Shown piece by piece: positions 18,706 to 28,682 of a stretch of DNA of 46,369 nucleotides. The translations under genes and the position numbers were made by a program. The DNA comes from Candidatus Altiarchaeota archaeon (lineage in GTDB: Archaea > Altiarchaeota > Altiarchaeia > IMC4 > JBDREA01), in the NCBI GenBank assembly GCA_043820265.1, contig JBDREA010000098.1:1-46369 (forward strand), written 5' to 3'. The notes beneath the pieces are model-generated. The model ran no database searches. It was not told the DNA's origin and saw only the letters and a program-made list of their open reading frames with translations. The first letter of the stretch is position 1. The number at the start of each line of letters is the position of its first letter.

Positions 18706-18788
18706 TTCTTTCTTTTTCGTCACGCTCACGACCGGAGGTCGTGGCGCACAAGGAAACTTTGTTTCCTTCGTGACGTTTTTCTTTCTTT
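18706..18788. repeat. 83-bp repeat, copy A, with two bulged-hairpin modules (18723-18746, 18747-18772)
   Basis: 82/83 identical to 18888-18970. Confidence 0.92.
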
Positions 18789-18830
18789 CCGTAAACGCTT
18801 TCTTTCTTTTCCTAAAAGAAAGAAAGGGTT

Positions 18831-19032
18831 TGCGCCCACCGGGATTTGAACCCGGGTATTCAGCTTTCTCCGATCCCTTGTTTCGATTTCTTTCTTTTTC
18901 GTGACGCTCACGACCGGAGGTCGTGGCGCACAAGGAAACTTTGTTTCCTTCGTGACGTTTTTCTTTCTTTTCTAAAGAAAGAAAAAGGTTCTTGGAAGGC
19001 TGAAGTCCTAAACCAGACTAGACTATGGACGC
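18831..19032 (-). tRNA. tRNA-Gly(TCC) with 127-nt intron at 37/38 (18866-18992)
   Basis: GCGTCCA/TGGGCGC acceptor; TCAGC-CTTCCA^A-GCTGA; CCGGG-TTCAAAT-CCCGG T-arm; BHB with CTTC/GGAG helix and CAA, AAA bulges. Confidence 0.93.
18888..18970. repeat. 83-bp repeat, copy B, inside the tRNA-Gly intron
   Basis: One mismatch against copy A (G18903 vs C18721). Confidence 0.92.
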
Positions 19033-27273: not shown

Positions 27274-28155
27274 ATGAAAATCCAGGAGATATTGAACTAC
27301 ACGAAGGCGTTTTTCGAGATAATTAGGGTCAGAAACTGCCTTCTCGGGTTTGTCGGTGTCATGTTGGGAGCATTACTGGTCTCTCAAGGTAACTTTAGCG
27401 TCCTTTTTGCACAAAAAACAGTCTTTGCAGGATTGGCAGCGGCATTCATCCTCGGGGCGGGAAACGCGATAAACGACTACTCCGATTATGAAATAGATAA
27501 AATCAACCGACCGAATAGGCCTCTGCCGAGTAAGAGAATCAGCAGAAGTGACGCCTTGATGATGACTTTGACGCTTTTTCTTCTGGGTTTAGCCCTCTCG
27601 AAGGCAATAAACAGGTATTGCCTCTACATCGCCATTTTTAACACGGTTCTTTTGGTCCTCTATGCGGTATATTCGAAAAAAGTGCTGTTTCTTTCTAATC
27701 TGACGGTCAGCTATCTTGTAGGTTCAATCTTCATTTTCGGAGCACTTTCAACGATTGATTCGGGTGTGAATCCGTTGACGTTGCCTGGGATCCAGATAAC
27801 AGGAATCCTAAGTATCTGTGCCGGCTTAATGACAATCTCGCGCGAGATAGTAAAGGACATCGAAGACATAGAAGGCGATAAAAAATCGTATTCTCTGACT
27901 CTGCCCATCCACTTTGGGGCAAAAACCGCAAAAAAAACAGCTCTTGTTTTCACTATTGCAGCAGTCCTATTGAGTCTATTGCCCATGATATTTGCACCTC
28001 AGGGATTCGATACACTCAAGTATTTGATATTCATAGGTGTGGCAGATATTAGTTTCCTGTTTTCATTTACCATGCACCCCAGCCTGGCTCAGCAGGTCAT
28101 GGTTGCAGGCATGGCATTCTCGCTTATGGGGTTTTATGCCGGCTTCCTCCTCTAA
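27274..28155 (+). CDS. digeranylgeranylglyceryl-phosphate synthase (UbiA family)
   Basis: GNAINDYSDYEIDKINRPNRPLPS, REIVKDIEDIEGD, TLP; multi-TM. Confidence 0.9.
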   Translation: MKIQEILNYTKAFFEIIRVRNCLLGFVGVMLGALLVSQGNFSVLFAQKTVFAGLAAAFILGAGNAINDYSDYEIDKINRPNRPLPSKRISRSDALMMTLTLFLLGLALSKAINRYCLYIAIFNTVLLVLYAVYSKKVLFLSNLTVSYLVGSIFIFGALSTIDSGVNPLTLPGIQITGILSICAGLMTISREIVKDIEDIEGDKKSYSLTLPIHFGAKTAKKTALVFTIAAVLLSLLPMIFAPQGFDTLKYLIFIGVADISFLFSFTMHPSLAQQVMVAGMAFSLMGFYAGFLL

Positions 28156-28215
28156 GCAAAGACTTTTAAGAGCCGCCAACATAAAGATAACTCAAATTTT
28201 ATTTGTAAGTCCAAA

Positions 28216-28411
28216 TAGCTCAGCCTAGTGCGTGAGATTTCGCTACGCGAAATCTACGCCCTAAGGATGCGAAGCATCCTTGGGCACTAGGAATCACGAA
28301 GTGATTCCTGTGTGCAAGTTCGCTTTGAGCGAACTTAGCACCCAACGTCGATTTCATCGACGTTAGGGCGCAGAAATCCCAAAAGGGATTTCTCGCGGAG
28401 CGCGTGCTTGG
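28216..28411 (+). repeat. duplicated tRNA-Thr 5' half interrupted by six abutting bulged-hairpin modules (28231-28397)
   Basis: TAGCTCAGCCTAGTG + 167 nt + GAGCGCGTGCTTGG versus tRNA TAGCTCAGCCTGGTGGAGCGCGTGCTTGG. Confidence 0.88.
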
Positions 28412-28448
28412 CGAGAAAGTAAGAATAAACGTAAAGTAGAAAAATTAA

Positions 28449-28522
28449 GCCCCAGTAGCTCAGCCTGGTGGAGCGCGTGCTTGGTAAGCACGAGGCCCTG
28501 GGTTCAATTCCCAGCTGGGGCT
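28449..28522 (+). tRNA. tRNA-Thr(GGT)
   Basis: GCCCCAG/CTGGGGC acceptor; CGTGC-TTGGTAA-GCACG anticodon arm; CTGGG-TTCAATT-CCCAG T-arm. Confidence 0.97.
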
Positions 28523-28682
28523 TAATCTTTTTCTTTTGTTTTCTTCTTGAAGGGATTTCCTTGTTTGTTTTAGGGTTGAGGGTTATCGAAATAGAAAAAG
28601 TTACTTTTTGATAATAATCAATAAATCACATAACTTATTAATACTTAATCCTAATATTATTTTGGAAATCGAGGGTTGAAAA

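Follow-up and report, generated by a model that had tools for sequence, protein, structure and literature searches.

Nested pairs of inverted hairpins in the D-loop of a partial tRNA-Thr copy in an Altiarchaeota genome

What is a compact array of hairpins doing in the D-loop of a tRNA gene fragment, and how did it come to be there? The question is raised by a contig of 46,369 nucleotides from a Candidatus Altiarchaeota archaeon (GenBank assembly GCA_043820265.1, contig JBDREA010000098.1), which we refer to in its entirety as the window. The window is contig C98 of a metagenome-assembled genome (MAG; here G000) of 1.97 Mb that is distributed over 172 contigs and is 82% complete. At positions 28231-28397 a 167-nt insert, which can fold on both strands into six abutting hairpin modules, interrupts a partial copy of tRNA-Thr(GGT) just upstream of the intact gene. 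As set out below, we judge the odds to be somewhat better than even that this array consists of three nested copies of a small, non-coding, double-hairpin insertion element that works as DNA hairpins.

The insert lies between TAGCTCAGCCTAGTG (28216-28230) and GAGCGCGTGCTTGG (28398-28411). When these flanks are joined, they are identical to the neighbouring tRNA-Thr(GGT) at 28 of 29 positions, and no base is duplicated at the edges of the insert; a preliminary description of the locus, made from the sequence alone, had likewise reported a single mismatch and no target-site duplication. The alignment of the fragment to the tRNA extends further, into a degenerate acceptor strand, and begins at 28210. 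Thus the left part of this dead copy, as aligned to the intact tRNA, comprises the degenerate acceptor strand, the 5' strand of the D-stem and the D-loop (28210-28230, plus strand), and the right part comprises the 3' strand of the D-stem, the 5' strand of the anticodon stem and the loop as far as the second anticodon base (28398-28411, plus strand). The fragment at 28210-28411 is called a tRNA neither by ARAGORN nor by Rfam, even at E values up to 1. Only 28449-28522 matches the tRNA family RF00005 (67.1 bits), inside the intact tRNA-Thr(GGT) that ARAGORN places at 28448-28523 on the plus strand.

To describe the insert we use a strict descriptor of a module: a 3-bp foot, a 1-nt bulge, a perfect stem of 7-12 bp and a loop of 3-7 nt. 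The scan divides the insert exactly as the preliminary description had done, into six modules without spacers, three with the bulge on the 5' arm followed by three with the bulge on the 3' arm. Every module of the array has a 3-bp foot, one extrahelical base, a perfect stem of 8-9 bp and a loop of 3-4 nt. If we denote 5'-bulge modules by A and 3'-bulge modules by B, then the order of the array is A1A2A3B3B2B1. On the left, A1 (28231-28258) has the foot CGT/ACG, a bulged g, a 9-bp stem and the loop tac; A2 (28259-28284) has the foot CCC, a bulged t, an 8-bp stem and the loop gaa; and A3 (28285-28312) has the foot CAC, a bulged t, a 9-bp stem and again the loop gaa. On the right, B3 (28313-28340) has the foot TGC/GCA and a 3' bulged a, B2 (28341-28368) has CCC/GGG and a 3' bulged a, and B1 (28369-28397) has CGC/GCG, a 3' bulged c and a loop of 4 nt. 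Three of the six modules have twins with identical arms elsewhere in the genome (A2 at C141:22000, A3 at C140:8297 and B1 at C10:6454). An apparent flip of modules between this array and that of C140 disappeared when C140 was read on its other strand.

The predicted folding is strong. Folded as DNA, the array forms six hairpins on each strand, at -61.5 kcal/mol on the plus strand (z = -13.6) and -61.3 kcal/mol on the minus strand (z = -14.0). Folded as RNA together with its flanks, it reaches -115.2 kcal/mol (z = -11.2), and none of 200 shuffled sequences did as well.

Do such modules occur elsewhere, and do they obey any rule of arrangement? The preliminary description had suggested a genome-wide search against shuffled sequence as a check, and the outcome is clear: the strict descriptor finds 177 perfect modules in the genome, compared with 21, 22 and 22 in three first-order Markov shuffles. 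(Low-complexity A/T hairpins, 6 of 204, were dropped before modules were counted.) Wherever modules abut, their order is far from random. An A module is followed directly by a B module 41 times and a B by an A never, with five cases each of AA and BB, and no abutments at all occur in the three shuffles. We therefore treat the A-B pair as the unit. Excising A-B pairs iteratively yields 45 pairs, of which 41 are removed in round 0, three in round 1 and one in round 2. The innermost pair of our array (A3 with B3) is excised in round 0, the middle pair (A2 with B2) in round 1 and the outermost (A1 with B1) in round 2; the last of these is the only round-2 pair in the genome. Because the outer pair is the last to be removed, A1A2A3B3B2B1 is to be read as three nested pairs: the array is three A-B pairs, each centred inside the next. 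Two other arrays appear unbalanced (AAB and ABB), and in these the partner is interrupted or carries a T.G in its foot. The idea that units were added singly, with which the preliminary description had explained the array, thus gives way to the central nesting of inverted pairs.

The architecture of a B module mirrors that of an A module, so that the architecture of a pair is the same on either strand. The same symmetry is seen in a covariance model, R1, which we built from five pairs and applied to 61 genomes of the phylum, accepting matches at E values up to 0.001: at each locus the R1 scores on the two strands are nearly equal. The innermost pair of the array (28285-28340) scores 68.7 bits on both strands, and it was itself one of the five pairs used to build the model.

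A consensus can be drawn from 119 modules, after 43 of 162 were omitted as misfits at the foot or at the start of the arm. Among the 119, the foot is CGC in 45, CAC in 33 and CCC in 27; the bulge is T in 84, and the arm begins A-R-R-R-A/T. The last base of the arm is C, giving a C-G closing pair, in 104. The commonest loops are GAA (20), TTC (13), AAA (8) and TTT (8), and as many as 96 distinct arms occur. The family is thus defined by structure, as the preliminary description had it, but its further assertion that sequence is not conserved must be softened, given this degenerate consensus. In sum, the element consists of two palindromic modules of about 24-32 nt each, in inverted orientation, for a total of 50-60 bp. 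The left module has a foot CNC, an extrahelical T, an arm A-R-R-R-A..S-C, a triloop, the return arm and the foot again; the right module has the mirror architecture. The ends of the element are degenerate terminal inverted repeats of about 9 nt (CNCTAR...YTAGNG).

Where do the pairs sit? Eleven of the 41 independent arrays are at most 100 nt away from one of the 25 recognised tRNAs, against an expectation of 0.16, so that the tRNA enrichment proposed in the preliminary description as a test is borne out, and strongly. The setting is not specific to tRNAs, however: 27 of the 41 arrays lie away from them, mostly within loops of other palindromes. Several sites recur, and we write each with a caret at the position of the pair. 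Seven arrays occupy the T-loop, at TTCAAA^TC; three, including the tRNA-Thr array, are at the 3' end of the D-loop, directly before GAGC; three are at CGT^TCACG, in a T/A-rich cassette of tRNA introns and trailers; five are in the TA^TT loop of a hairpin built on CACCGGTC; five are at AATA^TATT, the dyad of another palindrome; and three are at TGCG^TGTAAC. A further recurrent site is the centre of another pair, and pairs also occur at the apex of end hairpins of the IS200/IS605 type of insertion sequence (IS) and at a two-hairpin junction in the tRNA intron/trailer cassette. Pairs have exact edges without target duplication; the step that they interrupt is A^T or G^C, in a loop or at a junction of DNA that can form hairpins. 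The bases flanking the pair are complementary in 29 of 45 cases, compared with a fraction of 0.21 at random junctions.

Some of these sites are found in both states. The site CACCGGTCTA^TTGACCGGTG is filled at C147:18505 and empty at C59:14210 and C168:12776. Filled and empty paralogues are likewise found for CGT^TCACG, TGCG^TGTAAC and AATA^TATT, and for a cassette in a relative, G030.

The window itself contains three other pairs. An intron-containing tRNA (1421-1547, probably Ser-UGA) has one of them (1324-1375) in its leader, where the pair occupies the loop of a small hairpin repeat. That leader, at 1207-1420, holds two mini tRNA-like repeats, each consisting of an acceptor 5' strand, one hairpin and an acceptor 3' strand; the second copy bears the pair in its hairpin loop, and the first (about 1240-1280) is unfilled. 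Another pair (18723-18772) lies in the T/A-rich cassette between tRNA-Gly(TCC) and tRNA-Gln, and the same pair is present again at 18905-18954, within the 127-nt canonical intron of tRNA-Gly(TCC). This tRNA-Gly gene (18831-19032, minus strand) was missed both by ARAGORN and by the Rfam search at the gathering score. Its intron, at the canonical position (18866-18992), has a good bulge-helix-bulge (BHB) motif at its edges and contains a T-rich palindrome, the CGT^TCACG motif and the double-hairpin pair.

The cassette found after tRNA 3' ends and in tRNA introns is made up of a T-rich/A-rich palindrome, (A)AGCGTTCACGG or a variant of it, and an A-rich run. We observe it in the window at 18773-18830 and 18955-18990, at C141:21887-21935 and C86:5360-5428, and at loci L034 and L117. 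Several genomes of the phylum have it, as does one metagenome contig, and it may be a terminator-like unit or the core of a mobile intron. The genome also contains structured repeats of 230-450 nt, each with two CACCGGTC-TATT-GACCGGTG hairpins and with GGTTGTTTACA at the end; they are found at C57:2880-3330, C168:12580-12810, C147:18420-18620, C148:1860-2060 and about eight further places. Since hairpins similar to CACCGGTC adjoin Y1 transposase genes in the relatives G030 and G006, these repeats look like derivatives of IS200/IS605 elements without an open reading frame (ORF). Some copies have pairs inserted in their hairpin loops.

The tRNA sequences that carry pairs are partial copies of the neighbouring tRNA gene. 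The 5' copies span tRNA positions 1 to about 36 and lie upstream of the gene, the 3' copies span about position 47 to the 3' end and lie downstream, and one tRNA-Thr(TGT) has partial copies of both kinds. In our preferred reading, the element would enter loops or junctions of hairpin-forming DNA, at a time when the target is, we suppose, single-stranded or extruded as a cruciform, and insertion at the centre of a resident element would produce the AAABBB nesting. Within an essential tRNA gene, such an insertion would become fixed only if a partial tandem duplication preserved an intact gene, and survivorship of this kind is probably why every carrier is a fragment with an intact tRNA next to it. 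A tandem duplication that included the leader was also considered for the tRNA-Thr locus, and it is unsupported: the alignment of leader to spacer scores 19.0, and the shuffle mean is 18.8.

The history of the tRNA-Thr locus can be read from its relatives. The gene order CPSase-ubiA-tRNA-Thr is conserved; the upstream neighbour here is a UbiA-family prenyltransferase gene (27274-28155, plus strand, by Pfam), and 8 of the 12 loci compared from relatives also have UbiA, the synteny comparison by blast having been made without loci L013 and L015. In a genome of the same genus, ubiA and the tRNA are about 51 nt apart, versus 292 nt here, and neither a fragment nor an array lies between them. Fragment and array together thus amount to about 240 bp, missing from the relatives' spacers between ubiA and tRNA-Thr and gained in this lineage. 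An invariant array across relatives that matched a known non-coding RNA would, according to the preliminary description, have spoken against mobility. What we find is that the tRNA-Thr loci of 14 relatives contain no modules, and that the array belongs to no Rfam family. In searches of the window and of five other array loci, Rfam returned only tRNA, and the array by itself returned nothing at the gathering score; its best match was CRISPR-DR17, at 21.6 bits (E = 0.15), for which the gathering score is 42.

Across the phylum, R1 matches occur in 39 of the 61 genomes, from 0 to 87 per genome and with none in 22, a patchy distribution like that of a repeat family. (Judged by the covariance model, a strict IUPAC probe was far too insensitive: it recovered pairs from just 3 of 49 genomes and from 3 of 61.) A scan of metagenomes produced one true pair among the 80 matches listed, and none of 19 pattern matches in viral contigs was a true pair. 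At the best loci of 18 other genomes, the flanks of the pair are a T-loop in at least eight. The carriers there are tandem copies of the T-arm, acceptor 3' strand and trailer, placed directly after a tRNA (Phe twice, Gly, Arg, Pro and others). Two loci in other genomes are unusual. At L205 (G039:C73, minus strand of locus 1440-1800) a second copy of tRNA-Gly(GCC), extending from about position 8 to the 3' end, lies downstream of the intact gene and has hairpin insertions in both its D-loop and its T-loop. At L220 (G056:C6) a partly N-masked segment of about 190 nt is bracketed by direct repeats, which comprise the T-arm and 3' end of tRNA-Pro together with at least 42 nt of its trailer. The distal repeat contains the pair, and the two repeats resemble the termini of a small integrated element.

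It is important to determine whether the pairs act as DNA or as RNA. A comparison of six related pairs, all from one kind of site, shows 98.3% of cells paired; both partners have changed in 7 of 24 base pairs and a single partner in none, and the only changes to the stems are Watson-Crick double substitutions. In 25 decayed partners, G.T accounts for 2 of 22 mismatches. Loops of the form GNA make very stable DNA mini-hairpins. Some pairs lie behind terminators; T-rich terminators separate the tRNA from its downstream copies. We also looked for the BHB motif at the edges of arrays, defined as a 4-bp helix between 3-nt bulges and allowing shifts of up to 3 nt on either strand: it bounds 2 of the 41 arrays, compared with a null rate of 3%. 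At the tRNA-Thr array only two of the four central base pairs form, whereas the 127-nt tRNA-Gly(TCC) intron, which serves as a control, passes. Given the strand symmetry, the predominance of triloops closed by C-G, the lack of G.T pairs and of BHB enrichment and the pairs behind terminators, action at the level of DNA hairpins or cruciforms fits better than action as a transcript of one strand.

These results bear directly on the possibility that the pairs are RNA-level insertions, either introns spliced by the tRNA endonuclease or RNA that was ligated into tRNA loops and then reverse-transcribed. Such an origin would suit the D-loop and T-loop positions, which are also positions of non-canonical archaeal introns, a subject of reviews. 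It would suit as well the presence of some pairs within true canonical introns, the exact restoration of the tRNA sequence when the array is removed, and the two group II intron reverse transcriptases in the genome; an RNA route has, moreover, been proposed for the fungal double-hairpin elements, which also lack target duplications, according to the available portion of the source (PMC2800124). But the BHB counts just given do not exceed chance, and the carriers are fragments rather than whole genes, so that the sequences lack both an edge BHB and anything to splice, in contrast to the archaeal non-canonical introns and disrupted tRNAs that they otherwise resemble in having a D- or T-loop intervening sequence and fragments beside intact genes. 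When all 45 pairs are removed in silico, ARAGORN reports 16 tRNAs, as it did before, and none is new. G.U pairs are not seen. A single EndA gene was found, of the single-unit type, which is the strict type. Reverse transcriptases are present in 7 of the 61 genomes, only two of which have pairs, and with no link across the phylum we rejected reverse transcriptase as the mover. Altogether, we consider an RNA-level origin improbable.

Some details of these enzyme genes deserve record. The only tRNA splicing endonuclease gene found (C115:4306-4566, minus strand) has a TAG within the match to the catalytic domain, and its open frame stops at profile position 73 of 85. The two group II intron reverse transcriptase/maturase genes are on short contigs (C108:208-1185 and C111:773-1948), and one of them has an Rfam domain V match just downstream.

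If the pairs are mobile, what moves them? The most plausible candidate would be an IS200-type Y1 (HUH) transposase supplied in trans, since the genome contains an IS200-type element whose end hairpin has the identical geometry. Nine contig ends read AATAA/ATA-T-CCCCACAGC-TGA-GCTGTGGGG-TAT, in which a hairpin of the exact module geometry (foot ATA, bulged T, 9-bp stem and triloop) abuts the junction marked by the slash. These right ends are on contigs C30, C51, C54, C61, C79, C80, C137, C154 and C155, and left ends are on eight contigs, C117, C11, C127, C156, C166, C3, C55 and C75. In a relative, G027, the homologous end lies just past the 3' end of a Y1 ORF of 192 aa. The element has at least 8-9 copies here, always beside AATAA, and the MAG lacks its interior, including the transposase gene. 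The one assembled Y1 gene of this genome is accordingly an undercount, as 8-9 IS200-type copies end at contig breaks. Two further repeat families are found at 9 and 5 other contig ends. The genome also has a complete IS605-like element (C94:8476-10079, minus strand; tnpA of 132 aa and tnpB of 402 aa), whose end hairpins are built on CCCAC..GTGGG and are unlike the pair modules. Among other enzymes, neither Cas1 nor an IS110 transposase was matched in this 82%-complete genome; two tyrosine recombinases are present elsewhere in it, and an integron integrase was not sought.

A number of observations weigh against the insertion reading, and they concern first of all its enzyme. No enzyme could be tied to the elements. 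Y1 transposases are present in 17 of the 49 genomes of the order, and by hand count pairs occur in 12 of the 17 genomes with Y1 versus 21 of the 32 without; one genome (G036) has 17 Y1 matches and no pair, and pairs without Y1 are found in G013 and G017, both of them fairly contiguous. There is no R1 match in 12 Y1 loci from seven genomes, and the module consensus is unlike every IS end hairpin that we have seen. Such co-occurrence tables are weakened by the under-assembly of multi-copy IS elements in MAGs. With regard to movement itself, near-identical copies of pairs in G030 are embedded in larger repeats, so that they are no direct evidence for a pair moving alone. Insertion also leaves unexplained how the duplications arose and why the inner ends of the tRNA fragments fall so regularly at the anticodon loop and the beginning of the T-stem. 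Finally, several families, and a second order as well, show the same arrangement of a tRNA followed closely by a T-arm copy with a pair, which could reflect a conserved function instead of selfish spread. The analogy with HUH/RAYT enzymes acting on single-stranded DNA (ssDNA) that was drawn in the preliminary description therefore survives in part: action at the level of DNA hairpins is favoured, but the connection to Y1 is circumstantial, with neither co-occurrence nor adjacency.

The last of these observations leads to a different explanation, according to which the pairs are functional cis-elements kept by the host and inherited or duplicated with their surroundings rather than inserted. 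They might be structured parts of pre-tRNA leaders, trailers or introns, or cruciforms that bind a protein or set the ends of transcripts. The layout of tRNA, short trailer and T-arm copy with a pair in its T-loop is found across families and two orders (Phe in two genera; Gly, Thr, Arg and Pro), and with such phylum-wide recurrence the pairs may have a host function. The preservation of pairing through double substitutions is in keeping with this as well. At the tRNA-Thr locus, the best promoter-like A/T box is upstream of the fragment, and the array may thus be part of the pre-tRNA-Thr leader; because the 36-nt A-rich spacer between the fragment and the intact gene (28412-28447, plus strand) contains no T-run, transcripts that start at a promoter upstream of the fragment may read through it. 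On the other hand, the 22 genomes without pairs, and the 14 relatives whose tRNA-Thr loci have no modules, are difficult to reconcile with a retained function, and so are the 27 arrays far from tRNAs, many of them in IS-type hairpins and other palindromes. Filled and empty paralogous sites, and 25 partners that have decayed with random mismatches, also count against it. Strand symmetry and the lack of G.U pairs misfit an RNA made from one strand, and T-rich terminators stand between the tRNA and its downstream copies. We regard a host-kept cis-element as unlikely, while allowing it a real share of the probability.

Might the pairs instead be true REP or REPIN sequences, served by a dedicated, domesticated Y1 transposase (RAYT)? 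In the available parts of the literature, REPs are described as short palindromic repeats with an IS200/IS605-like enzyme as their presumed mover (PMC2817692, PMC3479197, PMC3733652) and with a tag of GTAG or CGTC at the foot (PMC3733652). The pairs share with REP, BIME and REPIN sequences an asymmetry that gives orientation, here an extra base in a short imperfect palindrome, as well as an arrangement in inverted doublets and high numbers. Y1 transposases are frequent in the phylum, and an IS200-type end hairpin of the same geometry exists. Yet the GTAG or CGTC tag is absent from the 119 modules, whose consensus is CNC-T-ARRRA; the sequences of a pair's two hairpins are unlike, and a single genome has dozens of stems (the 96 distinct arms), in contrast to REPIN families. 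The pairs, furthermore, nest centrally and reside in an archaeal host, and Y1 genes neither flank them, in the 12 loci from seven genomes, nor co-occur with them. We give little credence to this identification.

The insert is, in our judgement, almost certainly not an artefact of assembly or a chimera. A MAG of 172 contigs, in which repeats break the assembly, invites that suspicion, but the array lies well inside a 46-kb contig, with syntenic genes on either side, and the same architecture is found at about 50 loci here, in 38 other genomes and in one metagenome contig.

How, then, does the proposed double-hairpin insertion element compare with systems already described? The closest likeness in form is to the mitochondrial double-hairpin elements (DHEs) of chytrid fungi and Schizosaccharomyces, with related repetitive hairpin-forming elements in sponge mitochondria: according to the accessible parts of two papers, these are two adjacent hairpins, scattered between genes and without flanking duplications, thought to be mobile but with no known enzyme, and with copy numbers that vary between relatives (PMC10085805, PMC2800124). 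Like the pairs, they are short non-coding units that also occur inside RNA genes. They differ, as far as these portions go, in being solely mitochondrial, GC-rich and conserved in sequence between copies, some of which are identical across species; the same portions make no mention of a bulge rule, strand symmetry, nesting or a targeting of tRNA loops, and the comparison is by description only.

Ends of IS elements and of integron cassettes offer other parallels. In IS608, recognition depends on sub-terminal DNA hairpins with an extrahelical T, and in IS200/IS605 elements both hairpins are on one strand, in the same orientation and similar in sequence. The pairs resemble the ends of IS200/IS605 elements and palindrome-associated transposable elements (PATEs) in inserting without target duplication, and the right end found in this genome has the module geometry and lies next to an A; they differ in that their two modules are inverted and unlike in sequence. 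The PATE-like elements of this genome are targets of pairs, at the TA^TT hairpin loop, and not pairs themselves. In the attC sites of integrons, which are folded ssDNA, the strand is marked by extrahelical bases instead of by sequence. Folded ssDNA with extrahelical bases is common to both systems, but integrons have a single long imperfect hairpin for each gene cassette, beside an integrase, and here there are no cassettes, the units are strand-symmetric and the stems are perfect. A classical miniature inverted-repeat transposable element would share the degenerate inverted ends and would have the target-site duplication that is absent here.

With respect to tRNA genes, the portions available of two reports are relevant. 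In Caldiarchaeum a 5' fragment of tRNA-Thr(GGU) lies upstream of the gene, with a mobile element between them (PMC3293823). In Asgard archaea, D-arm insertions missed by software have been described, with the arrival of introns posed as an open question, and the word 'hairpin' is absent from that preprint (bioRxiv 10.64898/2026.10.13.758758).

Small palindromic repeats were already known from bacteria (REP/REPIN) and from mitochondria (double-hairpin elements). In the literature that we searched, there is no description of anything like the present family in Archaea. What is new is a phylum-wide archaeal family with a simple grammar of nesting inverted pairs and a preference for the loops of hairpin DNA, above all the D- and T-loops of tRNA copies. 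There are practical consequences as well: pairs hide tRNA-like sequence from annotators, and multi-copy IS elements with the same hairpin geometry break MAG assemblies. The pairs also offer a testable substrate for structure-specific ssDNA enzymes. The interruption and splitting of archaeal tRNA genes, and the origin of tRNA fragments, are an open question, for which the pairs provide insertion events that can be dated and counted. In its boldest form, which we put forward tentatively and consider rather doubtful, our proposal is of a self-nesting mobile DNA of archaea, defined mainly by shape, that would be moved by a structure-reading ssDNA enzyme, perhaps Y1 in trans, would specifically invade the D- and T-loops of tRNAs and would survive there by partial duplication. 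If this is true, the disruption of tRNA genes, the formation of tRNA fragments and the enlargement of introns would have a concrete agent in such mobile DNA.

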